Shown piece after piece: positions 10,207-26,632 of a DNA stretch of 64,000 bases (position 1 is its first letter; the number at the start of each line of letters is the position of its first letter). The notes below the pieces were generated by a model. It searched no databases. It was not told the origin of the DNA and was given only the letters and a program-made list of their open reading frames with translations. Source of the DNA: Candidatus Sericytochromatia bacterium (lineage in GTDB: Bacteria > Cyanobacteriota > Sericytochromatia > S15B-MN24 > UBA4093); NCBI GenBank assembly GCA_036676985.1, contig JAKFBU010000038.1, positions 32,001 to 96,000 of the forward strand, in the 5' to 3' direction. The translations under genes were made by a program, and so were the position numbers.

Positions 10207-13194
10207 CTATCTCCTGTTCACGTTCTGGTCGATCCATTTGAGGCGCTCGCGAGCCTCCGCGCGCTCGGCGGCGGGCATCTTGGCGTTGCCCACGAGCAGC
10301 TGGTAGGTCTTGGTCGCGTCCTTCCAGCGGCGCAGGTGCTCATAGGCCTCACCCTGCTTGAGCCAGGCGAGGGCCTGCCACTCGGGACCGACGCCGGCGG
10401 GCACCTTGAGCTTGGCGAGCTCGTTGGCCGCGTCCTCGTAGCGGCGGGCCGACACCAGGGTGTAGCCGAGCCAGTAGCGCGCCTGGACCGCACTAAGTGT
10501 GCCCGCCCTGGAGGCCTTCTCGGCCTGCCGGTAGGCGACGGCGGCCTCGGTGAAGTTGCCGCGCTTGAGCTCGATTTGGCCGATGCGCAGGTAGGCCGCC
10601 ATGGCCACCTCACCCGTGCCGCCGAGTCGCTTGGCGAGCTCCTCGTAGGCTGTGAGCGCGAGCTCGTCCTTGCCGCTCTTGGCGTAGGCGGCGGCGATCG
10701 CGACCGCTCCCTTCAAGAGGGCCGGGTGCTTGGGCGACTGCTTGGCGAGCAGGGCGTAGACCGCCCTGGCCTCCGCCGGGTTGCCGGCCTCCAGGTACCG
10801 GTCGGCGAGCTCGGCGAGCCAGTCCACCTGGCGTGGGCCCGGGATGCGCGCGATGGAGTCGAGCGTCGAGAGCCCCGCCTCGGTGTCTCCCGCCTGGCGG
10901 TAGGCGACCGAGAGCAGGTATCGCTGGTCCAACGTCGGCTGGTCGATGGCCGACAGGGCCTTGACGGCGTCCGCGGGACGCTTCTGGTCCAGGTAGCCCT
11001 GGGCCGCGCGGTAGAGGGCGTCCGCCGCCCAGAGGGAGCCCGTGGCCTGGGGCAGCGCGATCGCCAGCGCCCCGTCGTAGTCCTTCTTCGCGAGCTTCGC
11101 CTGCGTCAGGGGATGCGCCAGCTCGGCGCGGTCCTTCTCCGGACGCTTGGTGTCGGTGTAGATGGCCTCGTAGGCGGCAATCGCCTTGTCCAGCTGGCCT
11201 GCGTTGTAGTAGGCGGCCCCGATCCGCGCCTCGGCCTCGGAGCGCTCCTCCGGGGTGGCCTTGGCGTCGGCGAGGATGGCCTCGAAGCGCTTCACGGCCT
11301 CTTCGAACTTGCCTAGCCGGAAGTGGGCCTGGCCCGTGAGGCTGCGCACGCGGTTGACCTTGTCATGGGTGGCGAGGCGCTCCTCGAAGCTCGCGCCCCA
11401 CTTGACGGCCTCGTCGTTCGAGCCGAGGCGGAAGCTCGCGTAGGTCAGCCCGTAGAGGACGTCCGGCAAGGCGTTGGCATCCAATTGGCTCGAGTAGAGC
11501 TGGTTGTAGGTGGCGTTCGCGCCCGCCCAGTCGTGCTGGTGCAGCTGCAAGGAGCCCAGGCGCAGGAGGGCATCCTGGCGCATGCCGCCCTTGAGGCCGG
11601 ACGAGGCCTGCTTGAAGGACTTGAGGGCCGCGTCGTAGCGCTGCAGCTGGTAGGCCGAGTAGCCCTGGCCGTAGGCCGCCTCGGCAGCGAGGCTCGAGCC
11701 CGGGTAGGCCTTGAGGAAGCGCGCGTAGAGGTTGACGGCCTGTGCGAAGTCCCCCGTGCGGTAGGTGGCCTCGGCGAGCCAGTAAAGGGCGTCCTCGCCG
11801 TAGCGGCTGTCGACCACGTCCTTGAGGAAGGAGGCCGCCGCCGGGTAATCGCCCGTGCGGAAGTGGGCGAGGCCCAGGCGGAAGGTCACGGCGTCGCCCT
11901 TGCCCTCGAGGAAGGTCAGGTCGCCCTCGGTCTTGGCCATGTCCGTGTAGACGGCGATGGCCTCGCCATACTTCTTGAGGGCCAGCAGGCTCTCGGCCAA
12001 GAGCCAGCGGGTGGGACCGCGCTGGGAGCTCTTGGGGTAGGTCTTGAGGAGCTTGCGCGCGTACTCCGCGCAGTCCGCATAGCGCTTGTCGTTGTACGCC
12101 AGGTCCGCGAGGCCGAACAGGGCGAGCTCCGCGTACTGGTTGGGTGTCGCGTCGGCCGCGGCCTTCTCGAAGGCGTCGCGGGCAGGCTCCGGAGCGCCCA
12201 GTTCCAGGTTCACGCGCCCCAGGGCGTAGAGGACCGCAGGGCGGGCGATGCTCTTGGAGTACTTGGAAAGCCAGCGCTCCAAGAGGGGCTTGGCGCCCTT
12301 GGCGTCGCCCAGCTGCCAGCGTGCATAGGCCTCGGCGTACTCGGCCGGCTCGCTCCAGCGGGTGCCGGGTTTGACCATGGCATAGGTTGAGCGCGCCATG
12401 CGCCAGTTGCCTGCCATGGCGTAGCCCTCGCCCGCGAGGAACTGGGCCCGGGCCACCAGCTCGGGGTCCGTGCTGTCCTTGGCGAGGGCCATGAGCTCGT
12501 CGGACGCCAAGAGCGGCTTGCCCAGTCTCAGGTACTGGTTGGAGAGCATGAGGCGGGAGGGCACGACCTGCGCGCTCTTGGGAAAGAGGCGCACCGCCTC
12601 GCGCCAGGACCAGATGGCCCGCGCCGGGTTGGCGAGCCGCTCGTAGCACCAGCCCATGGCGAATGCCGCATGCTCGCGGCTCGCGGCCGCGGAGCCCTCG
12701 TCGAAGACGCCCCGATACAGCTCGAGGGCGTCCGCGTAGCGCGTCCGCTCGAACCAGGCGTCCGCGAGCTCGAGCCGGAGCAAGTCCTTTTCGGGGCCCG
12801 TGAGCATGCCCTGCAGGGCCACGAGGAGGGCGTCCGCCCGGGCGTCGTCGCCCGCGGCCCGGTGCAGGGCGGCGAGCTCCTTCTGGGCCCGGGGGTACCA
12901 GAGGCTGTGCGAGGGAACGGACTCGAGGCGTTCCTGGGCGACGGGCACGTCGCCGAGACGACGCTCGACCACGCCCAGGTAGTAGCTGCCGCGGTGGCGG
13001 TCCTCGCCCAGCATGCGGGCCAGATCGTCGCGCAGCTCCTCGCGGGCCACCCGGTAGGCGCGCCGTTCGATCAGGGTCTCGAGGCGGCTCCAGTCCATCG
13101 GAGCCGAGGCGGCCCAGGCCGGGAGGCCGAAGCTGCTCAAGCCGATCGCGATCGCCAGCGCGAGGGGAAGGCGGTGTGTCGAGCGTTTTGCCAA
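10207..13194 (-). CDS. Large exported tetratricopeptide-repeat protein
   Basis: Signal peptide ending PAWA; many TPR repeats (ALYWLAEATY, YP.S..A.EA.Y) over ~995 aa. Confidence 0.85.
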   Translation of the reverse strand: MAKRSTHRLPLALAIAIGLSSFGLPAWAASAPMDWSRLETLIERRAYRVAREELRDDLARMLGEDRHRGSYYLGVVERRLGDVPVAQERLESVPSHSLWYPRAQKELAALHRAAGDDARADALLVALQGMLTGPEKDLLRLELADAWFERTRYADALELYRGVFDEGSAAASREHAAFAMGWCYERLANPARAIWSWREAVRLFPKSAQVVPSRLMLSNQYLRLGKPLLASDELMALAKDSTDPELVARAQFLAGEGYAMAGNWRMARSTYAMVKPGTRWSEPAEYAEAYARWQLGDAKGAKPLLERWLSKYSKSIARPAVLYALGRVNLELGAPEPARDAFEKAAADATPNQYAELALFGLADLAYNDKRYADCAEYARKLLKTYPKSSQRGPTRWLLAESLLALKKYGEAIAVYTDMAKTEGDLTFLEGKGDAVTFRLGLAHFRTGDYPAAASFLKDVVDSRYGEDALYWLAEATYRTGDFAQAVNLYARFLKAYPGSSLAAEAAYGQGYSAYQLQRYDAALKSFKQASSGLKGGMRQDALLRLGSLQLHQHDWAGANATYNQLYSSQLDANALPDVLYGLTYASFRLGSNDEAVKWGASFEERLATHDKVNRVRSLTGQAHFRLGKFEEAVKRFEAILADAKATPEERSEAEARIGAAYYNAGQLDKAIAAYEAIYTDTKRPEKDRAELAHPLTQAKLAKKDYDGALAIALPQATGSLWAADALYRAAQGYLDQKRPADAVKALSAIDQPTLDQRYLLSVAYRQAGDTEAGLSTLDSIARIPGPRQVDWLAELADRYLEAGNPAEARAVYALLAKQSPKHPALLKGAVAIAAAYAKSGKDELALTAYEELAKRLGGTGEVAMAAYLRIGQIELKRGNFTEAAVAYRQAEKASRAGTLSAVQARYWLGYTLVSARRYEDAANELAKLKVPAGVGPEWQALAWLKQGEAYEHLRRWKDATKTYQLLVGNAKMPAAERAEARERLKWIDQNVNRR

Positions 13195-13303
13195 GTGGCC
13201 CCCCTGAATGGTTCAAACCGCGCCATTCGGCGCGTCGTAGCTCATTATAGGAGGGTGTTGGGGGGCTGTAAAGGCGCCTAGGACGCCGCTATCGTCCCAA
13301 TGG

Positions 13304-14122
13304 CTAGGGGTTGGCGCTTCCGGGGGTGCAGGGATCCGAGCTCGTGTTGGGATTGGCCATGTTGACCAGGTACGAAACGGCCCACATGAGCGGCCCCGAG
13401 GTGGTCACGTCTCCGGTCTTGGCGTTGACGACCACCGTCGGCGTCCAGCTGCGGTCCTCGATGAAGACCCACTGCGGCCCGAAGCCCACCAGGTGGAGCA
13501 GGGTGGCCGTGACGTACTTGCCGGGCCGGTAGCCGGCGCGCTTGGCCCGGGCGTAGGCGTCGCGGGCCTGCCACGGGTGCATGTCGTAGGCGTCGCGCAG
13601 GATGAGGAAGGCGTCCTTGAAGTCGGACCCGTCGCACTCGACCCGCTCGAGGCGGTTGCGCGTGAACGAGTACTCGAGCCGGAGCTGACGGTTGGTCTTG
13701 GGCGAGTAGTAGACGTGCCGGACCTTGCCGAGCAGCGAGATGCCCCAGAAGCCCCAACCGACGTACACCTGGCGCGCGTCCGGCTGCCAGGCCCGGGCGA
13801 GCTCCTGGGCGCGATCCTGGGTGTCCCCGGGCAGGATCTGGACGGATTGGCCGCCCTCCTCCTCGGTGCCGAGGCTCATGAGGCCCTTGACCAGGCCGCC
13901 CCGGTCGCCGATGGCGCGCAGCGTCTCGAAGGGCAGCTCGGAGGCCGCCGCGGCGGGCCGGGTGACCGCGAGCGGCAGGTCGGCCGGAGCGTCCGGCAGG
14001 ACCGCGGCGGGAGCCGGAGCGGCCGAGCGGGGCGCCGCCAAGGGCGCGCTCGCCGGCATGGGCGCGCGCTGGCAACCGGCCAGGAGCAGCCCGAGCAGTA
14101 CGCACGCTTTCAGCTTCGCCAT
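13304..14122 (-). CDS. Hypothetical lipoprotein
   Basis: GGAGG RBS, lipobox LLAGC, Pro/Ala linker, C-terminal PepSY-like VVVNAKTGDV. Confidence 0.7.
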   Translation of the reverse strand: MAKLKACVLLGLLLAGCQRAPMPASAPLAAPRSAAPAPAAVLPDAPADLPLAVTRPAAAASELPFETLRAIGDRGGLVKGLMSLGTEEEGGQSVQILPGDTQDRAQELARAWQPDARQVYVGWGFWGISLLGKVRHVYYSPKTNRQLRLEYSFTRNRLERVECDGSDFKDAFLILRDAYDMHPWQARDAYARAKRAGYRPGKYVTATLLHLVGFGPQWVFIEDRSWTPTVVVNAKTGDVTTSGPLMWAVSYLVNMANPNTSSDPCTPGSANP

Positions 14123-14144
14123 CCGCCCTCCAAAAGCTAAAGGG

Positions 14145-14175
14145 GAGGTTAACCGTTTAAGGAAAGGTTAACCTC
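14145..14175. promoter_or_regulatory. Candidate operator upstream of the lipoprotein gene
   Basis: GAGGTTAACC-N11-GGTTAACCTC perfect inverted repeat containing TTAA-N7-TTAA (14157-14171). Confidence 0.45.
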
Positions 14176-14210
14176 AGGATAGCGAAGCCTTCGGAAGCTT
14201 GTCAATAGGC

Positions 14211-15572
14211 CTAGCGCTGGATGGCCTTGCTGGCGTCGAGGATGCCGTGGCCGTAGTAGACGGGGTCCGCCCCCCCGGCGGTCGCGGCGAGCAGGATCTG
14301 CTCCATGAGGGCCGGCTTGAGGGGCCCGTGCGCCGAGCGAGCGAGCGCCGCCACGCCCGAGACGTAGGCCGTGGCCATGCTGGTGCCGCCGAGGAACATG
14401 TGGGGCGCGGGCCCCACCTTGAAGCCCTGGTCCTCGTGGGGCAGGGCCTGGTTGCTCCAGGTGCTGAGCACCAGGTCGGTCTTGTGCACCACGGGCGTGT
14501 AGGTCTCGGGATCGAGGCCCATGCCGCCGCCGGGCGCGGCCACGTCGAGGTAGCCCTGGCCGAAGTTCGAGTAGAAGGCGTAATTCGTGGGGTTCTGGCC
14601 GTTGAAGGGGCCGACGGCTCCGACCACGATGCCGGTTCCGGCTTCGGCGGGCAGCACGAAGTGGCCGTCGATGGGGATCTGCTGGCCGAAGTTGCCCGCG
14701 GCGATCACGACCACCGCCCCGCGCGACTGCGCATGGCGGATGGCCGCGGCGTAGGCCCCCTTGAGCCGCCCGCCCGTCGCGTTCTTCTCCCAGAGCCCCT
14801 CGAGGCTCAGGTTGATGACGGAGGCGCCCTGGCTCACGGCGTAGTCGATGCCGCGGATGATGCCGTAGTCGTTGCCCTGGCCGGTGGCGTCGAGCACCTT
14901 GATGGGCAGGATCGTGGCCTGCGGGGCCACGCCCGCGACGCCGTACCCGTTGCGGGCGGCGGCGATGATGCCCGCCACGTGGCTGCCGTGCCCGTTGCGA
15001 TCCACGAGGTCCGGCTCGTGCGGCACGAAGGAGCGCCCGTGGGCGAGATCCAGGTTGGGAGCGAGGTCCTGGTTGGTGGCGTCCACCCCCGAGTCGAGGA
15101 CGGCCACGACGGTGCCGCGGCCCTGGAAGCCCGCCTCCCAGGCGGAGCGGACCTTGCCGACGTCGAGGCCCCACTGGTAGCCGGAGAGGGGCTCGCCCTC
15201 GGGGCCGGGCTTGGCGGGGAGGTCGGCGTCGAGCGACGTGTCGCTGGCCGCGGAGGCCAGGATCGTCCGGCCGAGCATAGGGCGCGGGGCGGTCAGCGGG
15301 GCGCTGTCCACCCCGGGCGTCTCGGCCAGGCGCTGCATGAAGTTGGGGTCGGTGGTCTGGACCACCATGCCGCCCAGGCCGTCCAGGCTCTCCGTCACCT
15401 TGCCGCCGGCGGCGACGATGGCCGCGGCCACCTCCTCGGGGCTCCGCGCGGGATCGGGGAGCACCACGTAGCTCGTGGGGGTGGCGGGAGGCGCCCCCGG
15501 CACGCTGCAGGCGGCCAGGAGGGCGGCGATCGCCAGGGGGGGAAGTCGGCGTAGCCTCTGGAACGTGCCCAC
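14211..15572 (-). CDS. S8 subtilisin-family serine protease, lipoprotein
   Basis: GAGGAG RBS/GTG 15572; lipobox LLAAC; VAVLDSG, HGSHVAG, AAGN, GTSMA. Confidence 0.9.
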   Translation of the reverse strand: MGTFQRLRRLPPLAIAALLAACSVPGAPPATPTSYVVLPDPARSPEEVAAAIVAAGGKVTESLDGLGGMVVQTTDPNFMQRLAETPGVDSAPLTAPRPMLGRTILASAASDTSLDADLPAKPGPEGEPLSGYQWGLDVGKVRSAWEAGFQGRGTVVAVLDSGVDATNQDLAPNLDLAHGRSFVPHEPDLVDRNGHGSHVAGIIAAARNGYGVAGVAPQATILPIKVLDATGQGNDYGIIRGIDYAVSQGASVINLSLEGLWEKNATGGRLKGAYAAAIRHAQSRGAVVVIAAGNFGQQIPIDGHFVLPAEAGTGIVVGAVGPFNGQNPTNYAFYSNFGQGYLDVAAPGGGMGLDPETYTPVVHKTDLVLSTWSNQALPHEDQGFKVGPAPHMFLGGTSMATAYVSGVAALARSAHGPLKPALMEQILLAATAGGADPVYYGHGILDASKAIQR

Positions 15573-15668
15573 GCGATCTCTCCTCAAAAAAACACTCGAG
15601 CGATGACCCACCGGGGTTATACATCGCTCGAGCGTAGAGTTAACGAGAGAAACGAGGGTTATTTGGGC

Positions 15669-17126
15669 CTATTCGGCGTGCACCGCGTTGTAGACGTTGA
15701 GGCGACCGTGGCCGTAGTTCGCGTCGAAGCCCTTGGCGCCGAGGTCGTCGGCCGTCTTGTAGAGGAGCTGCGCCAGCTGCTCGGGCTTCATCTTGCCCTT
15801 CTCCGCGAGGACCAGGGCGGCGGCACCCGCCACGTGCGGGGCGGCCATGCTGGTGCCCGCCAGGTACATGAAGGGGCTCGGGCCCACCGGGAAGACGCCG
15901 AAGAGCAGCTGATCCAGGGCGTGGGTGCTCCAGGTGCTCAGGACCATGTCCTCCATCGCGACCGGGAAGACGCCGAACTCGGGGTCGTAGGCCACGCCGC
16001 CGCCGGGGGCGGCCAGGTCCGTGATCTTGCGGCCGTGGTCACTGTAGAGCGCCGGCGCGTCGAAGTCCTGCTGGCCGACCGGGCCCGTGGCCGAGACGCC
16101 CACGTTCTGGCTGCCGGCGTCGACAGGCAGGTAGACGTTGCCGGAGGTGTCCGCGTTCTCGCCGTAGTTGCCGGTGGCCGACACGACGAAGGTGCCCTGC
16201 TTGGTGGCGTAGTCGATGGCCGCGCGGAAGCCCTTGCTCATGATCTTGGCTTCCTTGCTGCCGACCGGGAAGCGGTCCTCGAGGCTCATGTTGATGACGT
16301 CGGCGCCCGCGTCGGCGGCGTAGACGATGCCCGCCATGATGCCGAAGTTGTCGCCAAAGCCCGAGGCGTCGAGCACCTTGACGCTGATGAGGGTGGTCTT
16401 GGGGGCCACGCCCACCACGCCGAAGCCGTTCTGGTTGGCGCCGATGATGCCCGCCACGTGGCTGCCGTGGCCGTTGAGATCCAGGACGCCGACCGCGGCG
16501 TCGGGGCCGTAGTCGATGAAGGACTTGGACAGCTGCGGGTCGAAGTTCTCTGCGAACTCGGGGTTGTCGAAGTCGATGCCGGTGTCGAGCACGGCCACCT
16601 TGACGGCGGGGCTGCCCAGCTTATCCTCGGCCTCGGTCTTGTCCGCGCCGATCTGGTTCATGTTCCAGCTGAAGCTCATGGTCCGGGGCTCGCTGCCGGG
16701 GGGCATCAGCTCGGCGATCTTGGGATTGCCGGCCGCGACCGAGCCGCTCAGGCGGAAGGCCTCGAAGTCCTTCATGGCGCCGTCGACGCCCTTGATGGCC
16801 TGGGCCTTGGCGAGGAAGTCCGCGTCCGTCGAGGCGACGCCGATGATGCCGAGCTCGCTGGGCAGGTTGCCGACCAGCTCGCCGCCGGCGGCCACCAGGG
16901 CGCTGGTCACCTGGGCGGCGTCAGCGTCCGCCTGCAGGCTCACGAGATACTGCTGCTTGCCCTGGTGCAGGGCGTCTCGCCGAGCCGGGGCCGCCTGATC
17001 GAACGAAGCGCCGGCGATCTGGCCGACCGAGGGGCGGTTGACGTTGGAGGGAGCGGCGTTGCAACCCAGCAATAAGGATGTTGCCAGCAGCGTGGGGATA
17101 GCGAAGCGACGAATAGAAGCGCTCAT
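15669..17126 (-). CDS. S8 subtilisin-family serine protease, lipoprotein (paralog of neighbour)
   Basis: Lipobox LLLGC; VAVLDTG, HGSHVAG, ATGN, GTSMAAPHVAG. Confidence 0.9.
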   Translation of the reverse strand: MSASIRRFAIPTLLATSLLLGCNAAPSNVNRPSVGQIAGASFDQAAPARRDALHQGKQQYLVSLQADADAAQVTSALVAAGGELVGNLPSELGIIGVASTDADFLAKAQAIKGVDGAMKDFEAFRLSGSVAAGNPKIAELMPPGSEPRTMSFSWNMNQIGADKTEAEDKLGSPAVKVAVLDTGIDFDNPEFAENFDPQLSKSFIDYGPDAAVGVLDLNGHGSHVAGIIGANQNGFGVVGVAPKTTLISVKVLDASGFGDNFGIMAGIVYAADAGADVINMSLEDRFPVGSKEAKIMSKGFRAAIDYATKQGTFVVSATGNYGENADTSGNVYLPVDAGSQNVGVSATGPVGQQDFDAPALYSDHGRKITDLAAPGGGVAYDPEFGVFPVAMEDMVLSTWSTHALDQLLFGVFPVGPSPFMYLAGTSMAAPHVAGAAALVLAEKGKMKPEQLAQLLYKTADDLGAKGFDANYGHGRLNVYNAVHAE

Positions 17127-17261
17127 AGCACCTTCCTTTTTCGGTGAGACCGTACCTACTGGGCTCTTACCCTTGGTAGCTCACGATTTTCTCACGAAAA
17201 CGAAGATTTAATGAAGACTGAAAGCCGGTTAGCGGCCTCTTATCAATCGAGCGAAGGTCCC

Positions 17262-18599
17262 CTAGAGGCCCAGGTGCTTGCCCCAGAACCGGAAGGCCAG
17301 GACGGCGAGCAACCCGACCGTGCCCAGGCCGAGCAGACCGTAGATGGTCAGGATGGCGGCCTCCCGGGGGGGGACGGACCCGGTGGGGCGACCGGTCAGT
17401 TTCTTCCCTATATAGGAAAAGGCCCTGGCCTGGAGGTTGGGGAGGGCGAGCAGATCCTCCGTCAGGTAGTAGCCGTCCAGGCGGGCGAACGGGATGAGGT
17501 TGAAGGCGCCGGCGGCCACGCTGATGATGGCGAGGTCCAGGGCCAGGGTCCGTCCTCCGGTCGTGAGGGGCAGCCAGGCCCAGGCCAGCATGCACAGGGC
17601 GGCCAGGCCGAACTGGTAGTAAAGGCCCGCCAGGCTCACGGCGACTCGGCCCCTGAGTGACAGGCGATGGGCTTCGCTGGTGTCGCAGAAGCCGAAGGGC
17701 ATGCCGATGAACAGCATGACGCCCATCTGGCGCACGGTGGCCCCGAGGGCGGTGGAGACGGCCGCATGGCCGAACTCATGCACGGCCAGGGAGAGGAAGA
17801 GGAGCGCGTAGATGCGCCCCAGGTGCAGGGAGTCGTACTGGTTGGAGAGCGCCTGCACCTCGGCCATGACCTCCGAGGCATGCAAGACGCCGAGTGCGGC
17901 GGCCGTGAGGGCGATGGGCAGCCAGACCGCCGAGAGGAAGCCGAGCGAGCTCGTGGGCTTCAGCACCGGCAGGCACGCATGCAGGAGGCGGCTCGGGTCC
18001 CAGAGGGGCAGCCGCCAGATGAGCCAGTCGAGGCCGGAACGACGGCGGCCGGTGGCGGTGGGAGCGTCCGGATCCTGCAGGAGGCCGGCGTCCCAGAGCC
18101 GCGCCCCGAGGTCCGCGACCTGACCCGGCGTGATCAGCAGCCCCTGGGAGTGCCAGACGGCGTTCAGGATCTCGGCGTAGGTCCGGGAGGTGGCGATCGC
18201 CTCGGCCACCGCGAACTCGGCGGCATCGAAGCGCATGTAGACGCCGAGCGGGGCGACACCCGCCACGATGAGCTCGCGCTGTCCCTCCATGACCGGGCTG
18301 GTGCGCAGGTCCGGGTGCCATGCGAGGCGCTCCAAGGACGACCAAACGGGGTGTGCGGCCAGGCGCTGTGCCTCGAGGGCCGCATCGATCTGGGGCTTGG
18401 TACAGACGCCCGCCCCTACGAGCAGCTCCCCGAGCCGGGTTGACTCCCGTTTTTGTCGTTCCAGGGCAAACGACACGTCGTCGGAAGAGCAATATCCCTG
18501 CCTGATCAGCAGCTCACCAAGCCGAAAGACGCCTGGTCGGAACTCCAGGAAGGCCTCTGCGAGAGGAGGAAGGGGCGAGCCGCCTGAAAGGGTCGTCAT
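17262..18599 (-). CDS. M50 (site-2-like) membrane metalloprotease with N-terminal tandem MshEN motif and RRE-like domain
   Basis: RLGELLIRQGYCSSDDVSFALERQ-KREST-RLGELLVGAGVCTKPQIDAALEAQ; GVYMRFDAAEFAVAEAI..TYAEI..LWDAGLL; HEFGH; NLIPFARLDG; several TM helices. Confidence 0.85.
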   Translation of the reverse strand: MTTLSGGSPLPPLAEAFLEFRPGVFRLGELLIRQGYCSSDDVSFALERQKRESTRLGELLVGAGVCTKPQIDAALEAQRLAAHPVWSSLERLAWHPDLRTSPVMEGQRELIVAGVAPLGVYMRFDAAEFAVAEAIATSRTYAEILNAVWHSQGLLITPGQVADLGARLWDAGLLQDPDAPTATGRRRSGLDWLIWRLPLWDPSRLLHACLPVLKPTSSLGFLSAVWLPIALTAAALGVLHASEVMAEVQALSNQYDSLHLGRIYALLFLSLAVHEFGHAAVSTALGATVRQMGVMLFIGMPFGFCDTSEAHRLSLRGRVAVSLAGLYYQFGLAALCMLAWAWLPLTTGGRTLALDLAIISVAAGAFNLIPFARLDGYYLTEDLLALPNLQARAFSYIGKKLTGRPTGSVPPREAAILTIYGLLGLGTVGLLAVLAFRFWGKHLGL

Positions 18600-18793
18600 A
18601 AGGCTATCTTACCCGATCCCGAGGAAGGGGTACCCGGACCCTCGAAAGTTTGCAGGAATGTTGCACGATCTTCAAAGGTCCGCTTATTTCGCTCAAGTCT
18701 TGATTAAACCTGAGGTCCAGCTGTTAAGAAGCCGTATGGACGGGTAGGAAGGAAGTAACGGATGGGGTTCACAGTAAAGAGGAGGATGTATCA

Positions 18794-19015
18794 ATGCTTT
18801 CGAACACCAAACTCATCAGCTTCGTCAACCGCGTGGCCTCCGACAACGATCTGCGCGCTTCGCTGGATGCCGACTTCGAAGGCACCCTGAAGGCCAACGG
18901 CCTCGAGCTCACCGGCAAGGAAATCGAGTCGCTGCGCGCCAGCTACGGTTACATCCGCGGCGTCAACCCGACCGCTCTCGAGCGTCGCATCGCGGCCGCC
19001 GGTGGTAGCTGCTAA
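18794..19015 (+). CDS. Putative RiPP precursor/scaffold peptide with Nif11/NHLP-like leader
   Basis: Strong GAGGAGG RBS; 73 aa; FVNRVASDNDLRASL..GLELTGKEIESL leader pattern; ends ERRIAAAGGSC; directly upstream of a radical SAM gene. Confidence 0.75.
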   Translation: MLSNTKLISFVNRVASDNDLRASLDADFEGTLKANGLELTGKEIESLRASYGYIRGVNPTALERRIAAAGGSC

Positions 19016-19038
19016 ACAAGGGTAGGTGGTATCTGCAG

Positions 19039-19074
19039 GGCAGGGGGCGCTTGCCCCCTGCCATTTTCGTTTTT
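19039..19074 (+). terminator. Intrinsic terminator/attenuator between precursor and radical SAM gene
   Basis: GGCAGGGGGC-GCTT-GCCCCCTGCC 10-bp stem followed by ATTTTCGTTTTT. Confidence 0.75.
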
Positions 19075-19086
19075 AAAGGATCGCTC

Positions 19087-20145
19087 ATGGCCGTGTCGTA
19101 CGATCGCGAGTTCTGCGTCCAGATCTCGGTGACCAACAACTGCAACCTTTCCTGCCGTCACTGCTACCGGGATGTGCGCAAGGCCTTCGACGACGAGTTC
19201 AGCACCGCCGAGCTGATCACGCTCCTGCACCAGGTCCGCGACCTGGCGGCCGACCTCGATCGCGAGCCCAACGTCGTCTTCAGCGGCGGCGAGCCCCTCT
19301 CCCGCCCGGATTTGGGACTGCTCGTCCGGGTGGCGCGCTCCCTGGGCATCGAGACGCACGTCAACACCAACGGCACGCTCGTCACCGAGGAGCTGGCCGC
19401 CGCCCTGCGCGAGTGGGGGATCCTCGCGGTGCAGGTGTCGCTGGACGGCCCGACCCCCGAGAGCCATGACCGGATCCGCGGACGCGGCAACTTCGAGCGC
19501 ACGCTCGTGGGCGTCCGCCACCTCCTGGCCGCAGGCATCGAGGTCATGTACAAGGTGACGCTCATGCCGGGCGTCAACACCGCGCTCATCCCCGAGTTCT
19601 ACTCGCTCGCCAACCGCGAGGGCGTGCACATCCTGTCCTTCGCGCGCCTGATCGCCATCGGTCCGGGCGCTCGCCTGCAACAGATGTCCATGCAGGAGTA
19701 CCGGGACACCCTGGAGGCGATCGCCCAGGAGGCCCACCGCTCGCCCTTCACCCGCACCGAGATCCGGGACGCGGGCTTCGACCGGGCCTTCTCCCTCGAC
19801 TTCGGGCAGAATTTCCAGAGCGAGGAAGGCCTCTCCTTCATGGCCATCGACGCCAACGGCACGGCCTATGCCGGCCGGCGCACGCCCATCCAGCTCGGCA
19901 ACTGGCGCGAGTCGTCGCTCGCCGACCTGTGGCGCCATCCGGTGCTCGAAGAGCTCAGGAGCCGCCGCATCACGGGCAAGTGCCAGGGCTGCGAGCTCTT
20001 TTCCGTCTGCGGCGGGGGCTCGCGAGCGGCCGCCTACGGCGCGACCGGGGACTACATGGCCCCCGATCCCCACTGCTGGTACGAGCCCGGGGTGGGCGAA
20101 CGAGTGACGGAGGTGGCTGCGGTCGCCCTCCCGGTGGTAAGCTAG
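19087..20145 (+). CDS. Radical SAM enzyme with partial SPASM domain
   Basis: AAGGA RBS/ATG 19087; CNLSCRHC, SGGEP, TNG, VSLDG; C-terminal CQGC-x5-C...DPHC. Confidence 0.9.
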   Translation: MAVSYDREFCVQISVTNNCNLSCRHCYRDVRKAFDDEFSTAELITLLHQVRDLAADLDREPNVVFSGGEPLSRPDLGLLVRVARSLGIETHVNTNGTLVTEELAAALREWGILAVQVSLDGPTPESHDRIRGRGNFERTLVGVRHLLAAGIEVMYKVTLMPGVNTALIPEFYSLANREGVHILSFARLIAIGPGARLQQMSMQEYRDTLEAIAQEAHRSPFTRTEIRDAGFDRAFSLDFGQNFQSEEGLSFMAIDANGTAYAGRRTPIQLGNWRESSLADLWRHPVLEELRSRRITGKCQGCELFSVCGGGSRAAAYGATGDYMAPDPHCWYEPGVGERVTEVAAVALPVVS

Positions 20146-20149
20146 TGGC

Positions 20150-21280
20150 ATGCCACGCACGCTAGGAATCGATCTCGGCAACAGCAAGGTCAAGTACGTC
20201 GCCCTGGAGCTCACGGGGGACCGTCCGACCGCGCGCTATGCCACCTTCCCCCTGCCCTACACGCCCGAGCTGATGCCCGATCGCAGCACCGACTTCGAGG
20301 CGGGGCTCGTCACGACGTCGGCGGCCTTCCTCTCGGAGCTGGGCCTGTCCGCGGGCGCGTTCGACCAGGCGGTGGTCGCGACCAGCCACTTCTACAGCTA
20401 TCCCACCTTCAGCCAGGCGCTGCACCACACCGCGCGCCTCACGCAGGCGATCTGGGGCGATGCCGTCCGGCTCATCGGAGCGGACGGCAAGCTGTACTCC
20501 ACGAGCGCGGCCCTGGAGCGGACGGGGTCCGAGGTGGTGCGCTTCGCGGCCACCAAGTTCTGGGGCTCGGCGTACCTCGCGAGCAAGCTCATCCAGCGGG
20601 GCCTCTCGGTGGACGTGGGGACGACCTCGACGGATGCGATCGCCATCGTCGACGGAGTCATCGATCCGGCGTCCCAGCACGATCCCGACCGCTTCAACCT
20701 GGGCCGGCTGGAGAGCCAGCGACTCATGTGGTACGGCATGACGGCGACCCCGCTCGACTACGCGGCGCGCCGGGCCTCGGTGGGCGATCGCTCGTACTAC
20801 CTCTATCCGCGCATGGCGCAGACCGAGTGCGTGACGCGCATCCTGGACCTGGTCCCGGAGGAGCTCGCGCGCCGGCATGCCTACTTCGGGCGCTATCCCT
20901 CGCGGGAGGAGGCCCTGTTCGAGCTCGCCCAGGCCTTCGGTCTGGACCGGGAGCTGTTGAGCGACCGGGATCTGGTCGATCTGGCGGGCAACTTGCATCG
21001 CCAGCTGATCGCCCGGGTGGCCGAGGGCGTGGCCCGGGTCATGGCCCAGGCGGGCCTGGGGCATCCGGGGTCGATCCAGGCGGCCGTGATGGGCCTGGGC
21101 AAGGACGCGCTGGCGCGCCAGGCGTTGCTGGCCTGCGGGGTCAAGCACGACCGGATCGTGGACGTCGAGGACGTCATCGGGCCGGAGCTCGCGGCGGTGT
21201 CCACGGCCTACGGCGTGGCCCTCAAGGGCCTCGAGGAGGTCGCGGGGCGCTCCTTGGGCTTCGAGGCGGCTCGGACCTAG
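20150..21280 (+). CDS. Hydantoinase/oxoprolinase-family (ASKHA fold) protein, MfnF-like
   Basis: LGIDLGNSKVK and VDVGTTSTDAIAIVDG phosphate motifs, RL..RLMWYGMTATP; size and motif spacing recall methanofuran MfnF. Confidence 0.7.
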   Translation: MPRTLGIDLGNSKVKYVALELTGDRPTARYATFPLPYTPELMPDRSTDFEAGLVTTSAAFLSELGLSAGAFDQAVVATSHFYSYPTFSQALHHTARLTQAIWGDAVRLIGADGKLYSTSAALERTGSEVVRFAATKFWGSAYLASKLIQRGLSVDVGTTSTDAIAIVDGVIDPASQHDPDRFNLGRLESQRLMWYGMTATPLDYAARRASVGDRSYYLYPRMAQTECVTRILDLVPEELARRHAYFGRYPSREEALFELAQAFGLDRELLSDRDLVDLAGNLHRQLIARVAEGVARVMAQAGLGHPGSIQAAVMGLGKDALARQALLACGVKHDRIVDVEDVIGPELAAVSTAYGVALKGLEEVAGRSLGFEAART

Positions 21281-21415
21281 GGCGAACTCCCGCGAAACCA
21301 CGCCCGACTTGCCCTGCAGCGTTCGGGCGGAACACACATCCCTTCCTCACCTCGTGTCCCGGAGACCCAAAGCGACTATACTGCGGCCATCGTCCCAGGC
21401 AAGTCAGGCGGGAGG

Positions 21416-22054
21416 ATGTTCATGGCCAGGGTAGTGATCGTCGATGACCTCCAGGAGACCATCGATATCCTGGCCCCCCCCCTTGTCAGCCAGGGGCACG
21501 AGGTGTTGACGGACATCAGCCCGATTGACTTCGAGCGGGTCATGGCCTTCAAACCCGACGTGCTCACGCTCGACCTGTACCGTCGGCTCGAAGCGTTCGA
21601 CCGCCCGATTCAAAACATCGAGGCCGACGTGATCGGCTTCAAACCCCTCGTGGAGATGGAGCAGTACCCCGCCATCAGCGTCATTCCCATCATCCTGATT
21701 GGCAACTGCCTGCAGGAGAAGGACATTCCCACGTCCGTCAACTACGACTTGTTCCTCAGCCTTCCGGGGGATGTCAAGCTCTACTTCCCGAAGGTGGTCG
21801 AGATCGCCACCACGGTGAAGACGCGCCGCCAGATCAGCGACTACGTCTGTCCCCACTGCGGGAGCCGGCTGACGTTCACGGGGAAACGGAGAACGGACTT
21901 CTTTTGCCCCCGCTGCCACACCGCCGTCGCCCTCATCGACGACGAAAGCTGCATTGCACACACCAGTGACGGGCGCAAGCTTCCCTGCACCCTCGACATG
22001 TTGCGGCCACCCAAGGCGCTGCCCTTGAAATCCAGGAACAGACCGTCCGACTAG
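21416..22054 (+). CDS. Atypical receiver domain fused to zinc ribbon
   Basis: RVVIVDD..KPDVLTLD..IPIILIG receiver pattern; CPHC-x15-CPRC. Confidence 0.7.
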   Translation: MFMARVVIVDDLQETIDILAPPLVSQGHEVLTDISPIDFERVMAFKPDVLTLDLYRRLEAFDRPIQNIEADVIGFKPLVEMEQYPAISVIPIILIGNCLQEKDIPTSVNYDLFLSLPGDVKLYFPKVVEIATTVKTRRQISDYVCPHCGSRLTFTGKRRTDFFCPRCHTAVALIDDESCIAHTSDGRKLPCTLDMLRPPKALPLKSRNRPSD

Positions 22055-22106
22055 CGAGGCGGTGCCGGCCCAGCGGCCGATCCGGATCAGGAGGTCGAGA
22101 CGGCTG

Positions 22107-24524
22107 CTAGTTGGCCTTGAGCGTGACGAGCGTGATGTCGTCGAACTGGTCCGTCCCCTCCGAGAAGCGACGGATGGCCGACAGGATGGCCGTCTCCACC
22201 TCCTGGGCGGGCGACGTCACGTTGGCCGCCACGATCTCTGCCAGGCGCTCCTCGCCGAACTGTTCGCTGGTAGGGTTGAGGGCGTCCTCCGCCCCGTCGC
22301 TGTAGAAGACGATGAGCTCGCCTTCCTTCAGCGTCGCCCGGTTCTCCTCGTAGCCGATGGACGGGAACATGCCGAGCGAGACGCCCTTGGCCTCCAGCCG
22401 ACCCGTCGTGCCGGCCCGCGTCTCCATGGGCAGCGGGTTGCCGGCGTTTGAGAAGACGAGGCTGCGATCGCGCGAGTCGTAGACTGCGTAGAACGCCGTC
22501 ACGAACATCTTCTTGGACGGACGGTTGAGGTAGATGAGCTCGTTGGCCTTGGCCATCACGTCTGCCGAGGAGTAGTTGTCGCGGGCGATGGAGCGGAAGA
22601 TGACGAGGGTCATGGCCATCAGGAGGGCCGCCGGCACGCCCTTGCCCGACACGTCCCCGATGAGGATGCCCAGCCGGTGCTCGTCCACCGGGATGATGTC
22701 GTAGAAGTCGCCGCCCACCTCGAGCGCCGGGATCGAGGTGGCCGAGAACTCGACGCCGTCCAGGGCGGGGAGGCTCGTCCGCAGGAGGCCCGACTGGACC
22801 TCGTGGGCGATTTCCAGCTCGCGCTTGAGACGCTCCTGGCTCGCGAGCTGGCCGAACAGCTGGGCGTTCTTGACCCACAGGGCGAGCTGCTGGCAGAGGC
22901 TCACGAGCAGCGTGCGGTCCGTGAAGGTGTAGTTGAGGTCGCTCTTGCGCGGACCCACGAGCACGAGGCCGACCAGCTCGTCCTTGAGGCGCAGGGGCAA
23001 GGCGGTGGCCTGCAGCAGGCCGTCCACGTCCAGGGGCTCGGTGGTGACCGAGAGCTGCTGATCGGCGAGCAAGGTCCTGAGGGCAGGGTGCTCCGGGCTC
23101 AGCTCGATGCGCTGCCCGTACTCGAGTCCGAGGCTCTCGCGCTGCACGAGGTTGCCGGTGGCCTGGTCGCGCAAGAGGACCGCCACGTACTGGGGATAGA
23201 GCGCGAACTCGATGGTCTTGACGAAGAGGCGCAAGAGCTCGGTGGCGTCGAAGGTCTCGCGGGCCCGGTCGCCGAAGTCCGTCAGCAGCTGGGCGAGGTT
23301 GTAGCCGGTGCGGAAGAAGAGCTTGTCGACGAGGACCTTGGTGCGATCGCGCAAGGGAGCGAACGCTACGGCCACCGCGCCGGTCGCGACGATGTTGGTC
23401 CACTCGGAGCCCGTGCCGAACAGGCTGCGGATGCCCGCCGTCAGGATGAAGTAGGCCGACGTCAAGGCCGCCGTCACGATGGCGTAGGTGACGGTGCGCT
23501 TGACGATGACGTCGATGTCGAAGAGCTTGTGGCGGACGATGGTGTAGGCGACCGCCGCCGGGAAGATGACCATGCCGAAGAAGGTGTACTCGCCCCCCGG
23601 AAGGGTGGTGCCCATGGTCATCAGGCCGTTGACGATGATGACGGGCAGAAAGGCGATGAGGGCCCCCCACAGGATGAGGTTGGCCTGGCTCTTGACCTGA
23701 GGCGGGCTCGTGCGGCTGAAGCGGGCCCAGATGGAGGCGATGGGCACGATGAGGGTCGCGCCCGAGCCGATGAGCGTCAGGAACTCGAAGGCCACGGGCC
23801 ACATGTCCGGCCGGTAGAAGCTGAACAGGATGTAGCCCATGAACAGGAAGCCCGCGACGAGGTTGGCGGGCACGATCCAGGGGAACCGCTCGATGACGGG
23901 CATCTTGCGGGGCATGAGGAACGCCAGGTTGATGGCGAAGGCCCCCAGGAGCGCAAAGGCCTGGTTGTGCGGGAAGGTCGTGAAGACCTGGGTCGTGATG
24001 CCGTCGAAGTTGGTGACGAAGAACGTCCCGAAGAAGATGCAGAACAGGAGGTGCGCGCGGGCGACGGGATCGCCCGGCTTGACCAAGGAGACGAAGATGC
24101 CGATGAAGAAGTGGAAGAAGCCCACCACCCAGAACGCCAGGAAGAAGCCCACGTAGTCGAAGAGCGTGAAGCGCTGGGTCGGGATCGAGAGGTCCTGCTT
24201 CGCGAAGCCGTCGCCGGAGCGCCGCTCCACCGTGTAGCGCAACGGCGTGCCGGGGGGATGGGCCGCGACGATCCGGTAGACTTCCTGTCCGTCGGCCACC
24301 GGCGCGCCGTCGACGGCCACGACCCGGTCCTTCTGCTTGATCCCCGCCTGGATGCCCGTCCAGCGGGACGACGCCAGGGAGTCGACGGTGTTGTTGCGCA
24401 GGACGACGAAGCCGGGGAAGGGGCGATTGATCCAGGTGAAGGAGAGCAACAGACACGCTATCGAAATTATCACGAGCGAGCCCATGGTCGCCCAGAATAA
24501 GGCCTTGGTTAGCTTCTGCTGCAT
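22107..24524 (-). CDS. PDZ/multi-TM/GAF PP2C (SpoIIE/RsbU-family) phosphatase
   Basis: GIKQKDRVVAVDG (PDZ), ~8 TM helices, VGGDFYD, IGDVSGKGVPAAL, YSDG, DDITL. Confidence 0.9.
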   Translation of the reverse strand: MQQKLTKALFWATMGSLVIISIACLLLSFTWINRPFPGFVVLRNNTVDSLASSRWTGIQAGIKQKDRVVAVDGAPVADGQEVYRIVAAHPPGTPLRYTVERRSGDGFAKQDLSIPTQRFTLFDYVGFFLAFWVVGFFHFFIGIFVSLVKPGDPVARAHLLFCIFFGTFFVTNFDGITTQVFTTFPHNQAFALLGAFAINLAFLMPRKMPVIERFPWIVPANLVAGFLFMGYILFSFYRPDMWPVAFEFLTLIGSGATLIVPIASIWARFSRTSPPQVKSQANLILWGALIAFLPVIIVNGLMTMGTTLPGGEYTFFGMVIFPAAVAYTIVRHKLFDIDVIVKRTVTYAIVTAALTSAYFILTAGIRSLFGTGSEWTNIVATGAVAVAFAPLRDRTKVLVDKLFFRTGYNLAQLLTDFGDRARETFDATELLRLFVKTIEFALYPQYVAVLLRDQATGNLVQRESLGLEYGQRIELSPEHPALRTLLADQQLSVTTEPLDVDGLLQATALPLRLKDELVGLVLVGPRKSDLNYTFTDRTLLVSLCQQLALWVKNAQLFGQLASQERLKRELEIAHEVQSGLLRTSLPALDGVEFSATSIPALEVGGDFYDIIPVDEHRLGILIGDVSGKGVPAALLMAMTLVIFRSIARDNYSSADVMAKANELIYLNRPSKKMFVTAFYAVYDSRDRSLVFSNAGNPLPMETRAGTTGRLEAKGVSLGMFPSIGYEENRATLKEGELIVFYSDGAEDALNPTSEQFGEERLAEIVAANVTSPAQEVETAILSAIRRFSEGTDQFDDITLVTLKAN

Positions 24525-24652
24525 CTGATCGCTTTCTATCCCAGTATTTATAGGCCTTATACCATGGGAGATTGGAAAGTTATCGTGACAAAAACACGGC
24601 TTGCGTGAGGATGCGCGGTAGTTCAGGCCCCCTTCGCGGGTATGATCTCCCC

Positions 24653-25723
24653 ATGGCCAGCACCGCGATCGACTCCCGCCTCGTCTCTAGCCTCCTGGGC
24701 TTTCTCATGGCCCAGGCGGCCGACGACTTCTCCGAGGCCGTCGAGCTGCAGGGAGCCGTTCCGGGCTATCCCCTCTTGATCGGAGCGACGTTCCCGCTGT
24801 CGCTCATCGCCTCGGCCCTCGACCGGGCGGCGCCCTCCGACCCGGAGGTGCAGGCCGTCGTGGCCCGTCTCGTGGAGGCGCTGGTCGGCTTCGGCGACGA
24901 GGACGGCTGGCGCTACTTCACGATCTGTCCGGACATCCCGCCCGATGCCGACGACCTGGCGCAGGTAGTCGCCATCCTGGCCGAGCGCCGCCACCCCCAG
25001 GCGGCCATGCTGCTGGCAGGCCCGTTGCGCCGCCTCGCGCGCAACGCGCAGGGGACGGGGCGCTACCGGACCTGGCTCGTGGACACGCCGGAAGAGGCGG
25101 CGCAGGCGGACTTCACCTGGGCGGCCGGCCGGGATCCCGTGCATCCCGAGGTGGTGGCGAACGTCCTGTACGCGCTGTGGCGCCTCGATCGCGAGGCCTG
25201 GCGGGACGACATTCTCGCGGGCGCCCGCTGGCTCTTGACCCGGCAACAGGCGGGACTCTGGGCCAGCTACTGGTACTACGGCCACGGCTACGGGACGCAT
25301 CTGGTCCTGCGGCTCTTGGCGGCGGTCGCCGAGACCTGGCCGGGCGAGGTCGCGGGCCTCCCAGACGCGCAGGCCGCGGCCCGGGAGTCGCTACTCGCGG
25401 CCCAGGAGGCGCTGGGCGGCTGGAAGGTGGCGCAAGCGCCCCTGGGCCTCTTGGAGCTCGGTGAAGCTTGGGAGTCCGGCCCGGAGCGGGCGCTCGAAAC
25501 AGCCCTTTGCCTGTCGGCCCTGACATATTTGCCGGTGGATGACACCGTACGCATGGCCCAGGAACGGGCCATTGCCTATCTCGCCTCGATCCAGGAGCCG
25601 GACGGAGGCTTCGCGGCCGAACCGTACTACTTTACGATGGGTCGTATTCCGCACCAGAGCAGGTGTTTGACCGCTGCTGCCGTTTTGTCGGCCGCGGCGT
25701 TCGTGGGTCATGGGGGCAGTTAG
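24653..25723 (+). CDS. Squalene-hopene cyclase/prenyltransferase-repeat protein (single class II beta-domain)
   Basis: PPDADDLA (DxDD) plus QW-like repeats QQAGLW, QEALGGW, QEPDGGF. Confidence 0.7.
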   Translation: MASTAIDSRLVSSLLGFLMAQAADDFSEAVELQGAVPGYPLLIGATFPLSLIASALDRAAPSDPEVQAVVARLVEALVGFGDEDGWRYFTICPDIPPDADDLAQVVAILAERRHPQAAMLLAGPLRRLARNAQGTGRYRTWLVDTPEEAAQADFTWAAGRDPVHPEVVANVLYALWRLDREAWRDDILAGARWLLTRQQAGLWASYWYYGHGYGTHLVLRLLAAVAETWPGEVAGLPDAQAAARESLLAAQEALGGWKVAQAPLGLLELGEAWESGPERALETALCLSALTYLPVDDTVRMAQERAIAYLASIQEPDGGFAAEPYYFTMGRIPHQSRCLTAAAVLSAAAFVGHGGS

Positions 25724-25839
25724 CCTGCGTCTGGTAGGGGGTATGGGAAGCAAGGGGGAAGAAAGCTAGGTCATTTCCTGCGCGGCAGCGTATAATGACA
25801 GCAGCAACCCAATCGTACCAACCGGGAGAGGGATCTTCG

Positions 25840-26190
25840 TTGGAGACATTCAAGCAAAGCATCGAAACAGCTGGTGATATCACCTTCCTGAAGCCCGAGG
25901 GGTTCATCGACGCCCACACGGCTCCCGAGCTCGAGAAGGTGCTCAATGACCTGCTGGCCCAACACCGCTACAAGGTGGTGCTGGATTGCCAGAACATGGA
26001 GTACATCTCGAGCGCGGGTCTCGGCGTCCTCATGGGGGCCATCAGCACCTTCCGTCAGAACAAGGGCGACATGAAGCTCGTCCAGCTCCCGCCCAAGGTG
26101 TTCAAGGTCTTCGACCTGCTCGGCTTCACCAAGCTGTTCGAGATCTTCGATTCGCGCGGCGAGGCGATCGCCGCTTTCCAGGAGAGCTAA
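25840..26190 (+). CDS. STAS-domain anti-sigma-factor antagonist
   Basis: GFIDAHTAPELE, YISSAGLGVL, VFDLLGF; TTG start after GGAGAGG (the upstream ATG 25795 overlaps a TATAAT box). Confidence 0.9.
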   Translation: METFKQSIETAGDITFLKPEGFIDAHTAPELEKVLNDLLAQHRYKVVLDCQNMEYISSAGLGVLMGAISTFRQNKGDMKLVQLPPKVFKVFDLLGFTKLFEIFDSRGEAIAAFQES

Positions 26191-26195
26191 CGTCC

Positions 26196-26630
26196 ATGGG
26201 CGAGTCCAGCCAGTTCGAGGCCACCTTCCGCAACGACACGGCGAATCTCTACGAGATTCGCACCTTCGTGCGCGAAAAGGCGCTTGCGATGGGATTCCCC
26301 GAGGAGTCCATCGACAACATCGAGCTGGCCGTGGACGAGGCGTGCGCCAACATCATGGAGCACGCCTATCCGCCCGGCGTCTTGGAGCCGGGGCTCCACC
26401 TGATCATCCAGTACGAGGACGACAAGTTCACGGTGATCATCTCCGATCGCGGGGAGACCTTCGATCCGGGCAAGATCAAGCCGCCGGTGATGAAGGAGTA
26501 CATCTCCGAGTACCGGGTGGGCGGCCTCGGCATCTACCTCATGCGCACCCTGATGGACCAGGTGGATTACCACATCCAGCCGGGCATCAAGAACGAGGTC
26601 CGCATGGTCAAGTTCCTGCCTGCCGTCTAG
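26196..26630 (+). CDS. RsbW/SpoIIAB-like anti-sigma factor kinase
   Basis: IELAVDEACANIMEHAY, ISDRG, GGLGIYLMRTLMD. Confidence 0.9.
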   Translation: MGESSQFEATFRNDTANLYEIRTFVREKALAMGFPEESIDNIELAVDEACANIMEHAYPPGVLEPGLHLIIQYEDDKFTVIISDRGETFDPGKIKPPVMKEYISEYRVGGLGIYLMRTLMDQVDYHIQPGIKNEVRMVKFLPAV

Positions 26631-26632
26631 CA

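Follow-up and report, generated by a model that had tools for sequence, protein, structure and literature searches.

Can a second messenger control the release of a peptide natural product by binding directly to the protease that releases it? This question is raised by a gene of a Candidatus Sericytochromatia bacterium on contig JAKFBU010000038.1 (NCBI GenBank assembly GCA_036676985.1), of which we analyzed the 64,000 nucleotides from position 32,001 to 96,000 of the forward strand. This whole stretch is called the window, and coordinates refer to it. The gene is predicted to encode an M50 (site-2) protease in which a recognition element (RRE) for peptides that are made by the ribosome and modified after translation (RiPPs) is preceded by a tandem MshEN_N motif, the motif type of known receptors for cyclic di-GMP (c-di-GMP). 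Each part is known; the joint MshEN_N-RRE-M50 architecture is real, conserved, and, among the matches listed, restricted to one clade. The features of the gene and its product are as follows.

17262..18599, minus strand: gene for a predicted MshEN_N-RRE-M50 intramembrane zinc protease, 445 residues
18546..18566, minus strand: residues 12-18, the N-terminal helix; MshEN-less homologues retain a similar stretch
18453..18524, minus strand: MshEN motif copy 1, residues 26-49 (R26 L27 G28, V42 L46 Q49)
18438..18452, minus strand: linker KREST, 5 residues, 50-54
18366..18437, minus strand: MshEN motif copy 2, residues 55-78 (R55 L56 G57, I71 L75 Q78)
18072..18332, minus strand: predicted RRE domain (PqqD-like, three strands and three helices), residues 90-176; matches 6JX3 (Z 8.6), 5V1V (Z 8.2), and TigE 8VPO (Z 7.5)
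17766..17780, minus strand: HEFGH zinc-binding motif, residues 274-278
17472..17501, minus strand: NLIPFARLDG, M50 third-ligand motif, residues 367-376

A Complete Tandem MshEN_N Motif

An initial annotation, made from the sequence, had described two 24-residue repeats joined by a 5-residue KREST linker at 18366-18524. This span corresponds exactly to residues 26-78 of the 445-residue open reading frame (ORF). The NCBIfam model NF053729 (c-di-GMP_motif) matched the repeats along its full length (positions 1-53 of 53), with a score of 50.9 bits where 38 is the cut-off. A weak match to NF008411 spans residues 27-79. A relaxed form of the tandem pattern was matched by none of 20,000 shuffles of the 445-residue protein, and the solved structures closest to the motif in sequence are PilF, MshE (5HTL), and PilB.

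The motif lies inside the protein. No in-frame ATG, GTG, or TTG follows Met1 before residue 42, and the orthologues P0003, P0005, and P0007 have the same start Met and a similar N-terminus; together these rule out a start downstream of the repeats. No clear Shine-Dalgarno sequence was seen upstream of Met1, no sigma-70-like promoter was found at 17000-19200, and no Rfam family was matched at 13000-27000. An assembly chimera is likewise ruled out, because the fusion recurs in orthologues from other genomes and a 3,032-nt contig from another run covers 17000-19961 with 171 letters different.

The ligand contacts of MshE are R9, L10, G11, L25, L29, and Q32 in the first copy and R38, L39, G40, L54, L58, and Q61 in the second (PMC5013675). 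Every one of these has a counterpart here, with Val at the L25 position and Ile at the L54 position as conservative swaps. These two residues depart slightly from the published consensus, as do the motif centers, which read GYC and GVC instead of G(LVI)(LVI); in MshE the central hydrophobic residues make no contact with the ligand (PMC5013675). Among 14 orthologues with the full motif, neither Gly(3) nor Gln(24) changes in either copy (14/14), and the six hydrophobic-triad positions are Leu, Ile, or Val in 83 of 84 cells; the surface positions around them change freely. The most distant orthologues retain the motif better (identity 0.40-0.51) than the protease domain (0.34-0.36).

The mutational work on MshE bears on how these positions should be read. 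Substitution of Gly11 abolished binding, while Arg mutants changed affinity by about five-fold at most, and the non-binder XpsE has lost G11, L29, R38, G40, L54, L58, and Q61 (PMC5013675). All of the positions lost in XpsE are retained in residues 26-78 (L54 as Ile). Position 55 is Arg in 5 of the 14 orthologues and otherwise Lys, Pro, Leu, Met, or Gln; Lys, Leu, and Pro are also found at this first position among PilF domains able to bind (PMC11731258). The R26A and R55A variants proposed initially would thus be weak non-binding controls, since the MshE Arg mutants alter affinity little and position 55 is variable. The MshEN_N unit of MshE binds c-di-GMP by itself with a KD of 0.35 μM (PMC5013675), and the genome (G000) encodes a c-di-GMP network with 19 GGDEF, 4 EAL, 13 HD_5, and 12 PilZ matches. 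On the strength of the sequence, residues 26-78 very probably form a receptor for one c-di-GMP on the cytoplasmic side.

Cys occupies position 12 of both copies (residues 37 and 66), in 10/14 and 13/14 orthologues, respectively, a possible lineage-specific feature. Cys at the GYC/GVC center is also seen in several paralogues of the same genome, and the copy 2 position-12 Cys is common among them.

Predicted Structure

An AlphaFold2 model built from 16 sequences had a mean predicted local distance difference test score of 83. After four helices (27-33, 39-51, 56-62, and 68-81) come, at 98-171, three strands plus three helices and then the membrane domain. The whole-chain model gave no Foldseek match at E ≤ 0.001, and the three domains were placed separately with a second structural aligner. 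Residues 24-81 superimpose on c-di-GMP-bound MshE (5HTL) with Z 11.5 and 1.3 Å over 58 residues. The fit to PilF GSPII-B is similar (Z 11-11.5, with 1.3-1.5 Å as the range for PilF and MshE), but PilF GSPII-A, whose second motif is degenerate, reached only Z 4.5. The profile score, the ligand-contact residues, and this overlay bear out the fusion of an RRE-M50 peptidase with a c-di-GMP receptor motif of the MshEN_N type. The Pfam MshEN model PF05157, which describes the full GSPII domain with MshEN_C, found no match; the RRE fold comes next instead.

That fold aligns with the lasso-peptide B1 RREs 6JX3 (2.7 Å, 83 residues) and 5V1V, where Z near 8 is a moderate value. A search for both domains with profile models had been suggested: the MshEN part was confirmed, but no Pfam PqqD or RRE model matched at E ≤ 0.1, and NF041824 (see below) covers the protein from residue 120 only. 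The RRE assignment therefore rests on predicted structure, in which the winged-helix segment described initially is recovered.

The membrane part aligns with RseP, S2P, and SpoIVFB (Z 8-11; 3B4R Z 9.3, 8VJM Z 8.9) and matches Pfam Peptidase_M50 (PF02163) with 33.5 against a cut-off of 27.2. The HEFGH and NxxPxxxxDG motifs noted initially were located at residues 274-278 and 367-376, and H274, E275, H278, P370, D375, and G376 are invariant in all 16 aligned sequences. The protein is thus predicted from its sequence to be a membrane-embedded M50/site-2 zinc protease with intact zinc motifs. The MshEN motif and the RRE are predicted to face the cytoplasm, because hydrophobic segments are absent ahead of residue 221 and Lys and Arg are missing from the first loop (240-258).

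Distribution and Age of the Fusion

Occurrence of the fusion was surveyed as the initial annotation had advised. Nine of 47 genomes sampled from the class Sericytochromatia match the RRE-M50 part at E ≤ 1e-8. Five of these, all of family f1 (G000, G001, G002, G005, and G008), carry the motif. The proteins of G004 and G007 (family f1, genus g4) and of G010 and G018 (other families; a longer form in G018) are RRE-M50 proteins without MshEN. In a representative library, 6 of the best 150 of 19,768 matches (E ≤ 0.001) have the motif. Among the GTDB loci listed, at least three do, that is, 3 of 71 M50 ORFs in 80 loci; nine of the 80 loci had no ORF passing the M50 pattern and are omitted from the 71, and a scan of all ORFs of the 80 loci gave the same three. 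Among the metagenome loci listed the motif occurs in at least three (3/80), all with the same gene cluster. The motif-bearing rows placed in a tree group with the Sericytochromatia proteins, and among the matches listed the architecture was found only in one Sericytochromatia clade.

Two trees were built from the region after the motif, the second being a quick tree. In both, starred branches put G004 and G007 inside the MshEN-bearing set. Two changes are required by the larger tree and three by the smaller, and neither settles the base of the Sericytochromatia group. As far as these sequences go, the pattern fits an early gain of the motif followed by loss in genus g4. In the g4 proteins the N-terminal helix runs straight into the post-motif segment, a clean in-frame loss. 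Because the MshEN-less homologues keep a helix segment of this kind, the motif can be described as inserted after it. Loss of c-di-GMP signaling as the cause of the g4 deletion is ruled out by intact networks in both genomes, where G004/G007 retain 14/18 GGDEF and 22/24 strong MshEN matches.

The initial annotation had pointed to many A/T-ending codons in the motif, as a sign of either recent fusion or a 5′-end effect. The excess is real: G or C at the third codon position (GC3) occurs in 38 of 53 motif codons versus 319 of 349 downstream. This is the lowest value among 26 MshEN segments compared in the genome (the set behind our local MshEN profile, one of them shifted by one residue). Codons 2-25, ahead of the motif, are as low (15/24), and repeat 2 is already recovering (20/24), as expected of a 5′-end effect. 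Of 1,297 long genes called crudely, about 6% have GC3 this low at codons 26-78, and in four orthologues the gap between motif and downstream GC3 is smaller or nil (0.81/0.90, 0.87/0.86, 0.77/0.82, and 0.71/0.86). The best paralogous motif, of 26 compared in the genome, is identical at only 24 of 53 positions. A recent fusion is rejected: by sequence divergence the fusion is old, since genera with only 34-36% identity between their protease domains have it in common.

The Neighboring Peptide Cluster

The genes around the protease that enter the argument are listed here.

18794..19015, plus strand: 73-residue peptide, Nif11/NHLP(Os1348)-like, with an invariant terminal Cys; candidate precursor and substrate, below model cut-offs
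19039..19072, plus strand: terminator-like hairpin with T-rich tail between the peptide and radical S-adenosylmethionine (SAM) genes; weak, 2 sites versus 1.2 ± 0.9 expected
19087..20145, plus strand: radical SAM/SPASM enzyme, radical SAM domain from residue 13
20150..21280, plus strand: Hydantoinase_A / TIGR03123 / MfnF-like protein; Pfam above cut-off, TIGR03123 and MfnF below
15669..17126, minus strand: subtilase (S8) downstream of the M50 gene, co-oriented with it and syntenic in relatives
14211..15611, minus strand: second subtilase (S8)
22107..24524, minus strand: SpoIIE-type membrane phosphatase that has weak PDZ and GAF matches and keeps its place next to the peptide cluster in relatives

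The peptide is modeled as helical. In the fifteen family peptides (14 distinct) the body is conserved, the Gly-rich tail varies, and the last residue is Cys in every case (15/15); an Atlas search with the peptide returned leads below 0.9 only. With its radical SAM domain starting at residue 13, the radical SAM/SPASM enzyme has no space for an N-terminal RRE of its own. The S8-M50 pair and the divergent peptide-radical SAM-MfnF-like-SpoIIE genes lie on one contig in six genomes (G000, G002, G004, G005, G007, and G008). The same S8-M50/peptide order is found across two contigs in G001 and in the three metagenome loci. Within family f1 the M50 and peptide genes occur together in 7 of 10 genomes and are both missing from the other 3.

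One RNA run contained a 229-nt contig that coincides with the peptide gene and has no mismatch to it. It is not counted as evidence of expression, because the organism is barely present in the run; a control stretch gave only one piece longer than 100 nt.

The genes at 18794-21280 (plus strand) form a RiPP-like cluster without a match to a described class, which is also present in family f4 without M50. Orphan second copies of the peptide lie away from the cluster in G005 (L130, contig C31) and G002 (L131, contig C36), the former near insertion-sequence-like ORFs.

Comparison with Known Systems

In its tandem 24-residue motif, 5-residue linker, ligand contacts, and four-helix model (1.3 Å), the N-terminal module resembles MshE 5HTL and Thermus thermophilus PilF GSPII-B. 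Unlike V. cholerae MshE and PilF, the protein has no MshEN_C and no ATPase, has an RRE and an M50 domain fused instead, and has Cys at motif position 12. A nearer parallel in this respect is Escherichia coli NfrB, an MshEN protein that is a c-di-GMP-controlled glycosyltransferase (PMC8669469). NfrB likewise carries the module on an enzyme that is not an ATPase, and the weak NF008411 match is a further likeness, but NfrB makes exopolysaccharide and is not a protease.

The RRE-M50 portion recalls MpaP, an RRE-fused site-2 protease described as a remover of daptide leaders (bioRxiv 10.1101/2023.03.08.531785). With MpaP/DapP (NF041824) it shares the RRE-M50 order, a compact membrane protease, and a short peptide gene nearby. 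The daptide system differs in having no MshEN_N, and the present peptide ends in Cys rather than Thr and has a Nif11/NHLP-like helical leader. The neighbors are radical SAM and MfnF-like enzymes, not the dehydrogenase, aminotransferase, and methyltransferase of daptide clusters (10 neighbors scanned). Although NF041824 is the best NCBIfam match, its score of 158.6 bits is below the cut-off of 300, and assignment as a daptide peptidase is rejected.

Among other M50 enzymes, TglG and TmoG remove residues at the C-terminus, and EpeP is a cleaving enzyme with a presumed export role (PMC10885120). The pearlin enzymes TglG/TmoG and the epipeptide enzyme EpeP resemble the present case as M50 proteins releasing a modified residue or peptide, and the long scaffold, short tail, and terminal Cys seen here would fit such a role. 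The hallmark of pearlins is a LanB-like tRNA-dependent ligase that adds the terminal residue to a reusable scaffold. Here, by contrast, the Cys is gene-encoded, and no LanB-like ligase was found among the 10 neighbors scanned (a genome-wide search was not made). The passages of the review that deal with TglG, TmoG, and EpeP mention no c-di-GMP module (PMC10885120).

SpoIVFB and Methanocaldococcus jannaschii S2P share with this protein the site-2 fold and a cytoplasmic domain of a small-molecule-sensing family. Their domain is a C-terminal CBS domain, however, and they have no RRE; the SpoIVFB substrate is a pro-sigma factor. Here the module is N-terminal and of the c-di-GMP-binding type.

Gating of Peptide Release and Alternative Explanations

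The reading we prefer, as the best of those considered, is that c-di-GMP gates cleavage of the neighboring peptide; it is put forward tentatively. In this mechanism the RRE would capture the modified peptide by its leader, and a short Cys-terminal product would then be cut off by the M50 domain. The bundle between the retained N-terminal helix and the RRE would set whether the peptide is handed over to the active site. The empty bundle would restrain the RRE, binding of c-di-GMP would free it, and product would be released at high c-di-GMP. The g4 enzyme, with the bundle deleted, would be constitutive. If the motif binds, c-di-GMP probably alters the output of the protease, and the likely substrate is the neighboring peptide once the radical SAM and MfnF-like enzymes have modified it. 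The direction of control is the least certain part. We lean toward release of inhibition because NfrB is c-di-GMP-controlled, a non-binding MshE variant behaved like a constitutive one, and the g4 deletion is tolerated. The MshE precedent is a triple-Leu variant that failed to bind and yet gave full complementation, interpreted by its authors as constitutive activity (PMC5013675).

Several observations weigh against this gating mechanism. The motif is dispensable, for G004 and G007 keep the whole cluster without it although their c-di-GMP networks persist. It is also promiscuous in the lineage, with 48 matches in 25 ORFs of G000, so that the fusion by itself says little. In SpoIVFB, the closest analogue, processing does not depend on the CBS domain, whose role has been termed "enigmatic" (PMC11486902; caution also in PMC9042235). 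The peptide falls below the cut-offs of its best models (NF038399, 29.3 against 40; TIGR03798, 18.1 against 32.3). The M50 gene is co-oriented with the S8 gene and divergent from the peptide, and G010 has the S8-M50 pair without a peptide match. Conversely, three family f4 genomes have the peptide, radical SAM, and MfnF-like genes with no adjacent M50 gene (two on short contigs). One f4 genome, G016, is 98% complete and gave no RRE-M50 match with this query at E ≤ 1e-8.

Some of these points would be accommodated if the motif binds c-di-GMP without gating catalysis and serves docking, localization, or stability, for example by recruiting a cyclase, the peptide being cut either way. The clean loss in g4 with the cluster intact would agree with this. 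There are precedents in the SpoIVFB CBS domain, which aids substrate localization without being essential (PMC11486902), and in NfrB, which contacts a specific cyclase directly (PMC8669469). The motif also sits on many TPR and uncharacterized proteins of the genome: the 20 of 25 motif-bearing ORFs scanned include 5 secretion ATPases, 4 TPR proteins, and 1 C39 peptidase, the rest being poorly annotated. We nevertheless hold this explanation to be unlikely. The bundle is fixed at both ends, to the N-terminal helix and to the predicted substrate-recruiting RRE, and the 64-kb window contains no GGDEF or EAL match, its single HD_5 match lying ~10 kb from the protease. A different objection concerns the substrate: c-di-GMP may control the protease, but the target may be a membrane protein or signal-peptide remnant (from S8 or the SpoIIE sensor), as in regulated intramembrane proteolysis, with S8 maturing the peptide. 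The adjacency and shared orientation of M50 and S8 even in the peptide-less G010 speak for this, as do the f4 loci of G016 and G018, where S8 is divergent from the peptide with no M50 gene between. In addition, 104 of 139 more distant relatives exceed 650 residues, and those with Pfam data have extra C-terminal domains, so the wider family has other settings. Against it stand the RRE fold, which is retained in the model, and a radical SAM enzyme without an N-terminal RRE. The exact co-occurrence of M50 and peptide in f1 also opposes it, as does a weakly similar peptide (20 bits) directly after an RRE-M50 gene in an unrelated metagenome locus (L178, position ~5840; 1 of 77 loci). Taken together, we regard another substrate as rather unlikely.

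The repeat could also be a structural relic of an expanded motif family that binds weakly or not at all. The GYC/GVC centers, the variable R55, and the missing MshEN_C subdomain would agree with this, as would the loss of the motif in one genus. Lone orthologues without a G(10) or L58 equivalent point the same way, P0026 having Arg at the L58 position (the one exception in 84 cells), which also counts against gating. However, the ligand-contacting Gly and Gln are invariant, the central residues lie off the ligand, isolated MshEN_N suffices for submicromolar binding (PMC5013675), and the positions lost in XpsE are all kept. A relic is accordingly quite improbable.

The gating mechanism can be extended into a fuller proposal, which is more doubtful than gating itself. 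An intramembrane protease would be switched directly by c-di-GMP, the final cleavage of a RiPP would be gated at the enzyme, an undescribed radical SAM-modified Cys-terminal product would be released according to lifestyle, and genus g4 would have escaped by in-frame deletion of the sensor.

Significance

So far, MshEN is known from pilus and secretion ATPases and a glycosyltransferase, and RRE-M50 proteins as RiPP leader peptidases. Full-text literature searches (top results; few subscription journals covered) found no report of an MshEN-M50 fusion or of a RiPP maturation enzyme under c-di-GMP binding. A term search of the PMC5013675 supplement gave a single instance of "peptidase", in MshEN_N-Peptidase_M23, and none of "M50", "protease", or "PqqD". 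In the matching parts of PMC12943098 and PMC7288161, "M50" beside MshEN terms occurs only in DOI strings. If gating is correct, c-di-GMP would be linked to the post-translational release of a peptide natural product. The protein would also be a tractable example of ligand control of a site-2 protease, still an open question for the CBS-bearing members. Orthologues with and without the module, 45% identical and in the same cluster, offer a ready comparison. The interest is limited by the narrow distribution, by assemblies that all come from metagenomes, and by a lineage that puts the motif on many proteins.

Other Observations

A second MshEN-protease fusion occurs in the same genome (G000:C10:3508-4797, L134). 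It has three tandem MshEN_N domains, a hydrophobic segment, and a C39-like peptidase domain (PF13529, 53.6 bits). The segment ends in LTGC, which we take to be lipobox-like. Full-length orthologues (L153-L157) with 51-75% identity were found in all five genomes checked. L134 could be a c-di-GMP-controlled protease that is membrane-anchored or exported.

The HD_5 match of the window belongs to a protein with GAF and HD_5 (HD-GYP-like) domains at 5681-7660 (minus strand). At 22107-26630, the SpoIIE-type phosphatase is syntenic with the peptide cluster in both f1 and f4, and in some genomes STAS- and RsbW-like genes, as judged from sequence, come next; the phosphatase could be the receptor of the peptide product. 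Beside the SpoIIE gene, a squalene-hopene-cyclase C-terminal/prenyltransferase-like protein is encoded at 24650-25723 (plus strand) and is conserved in this position in f1.

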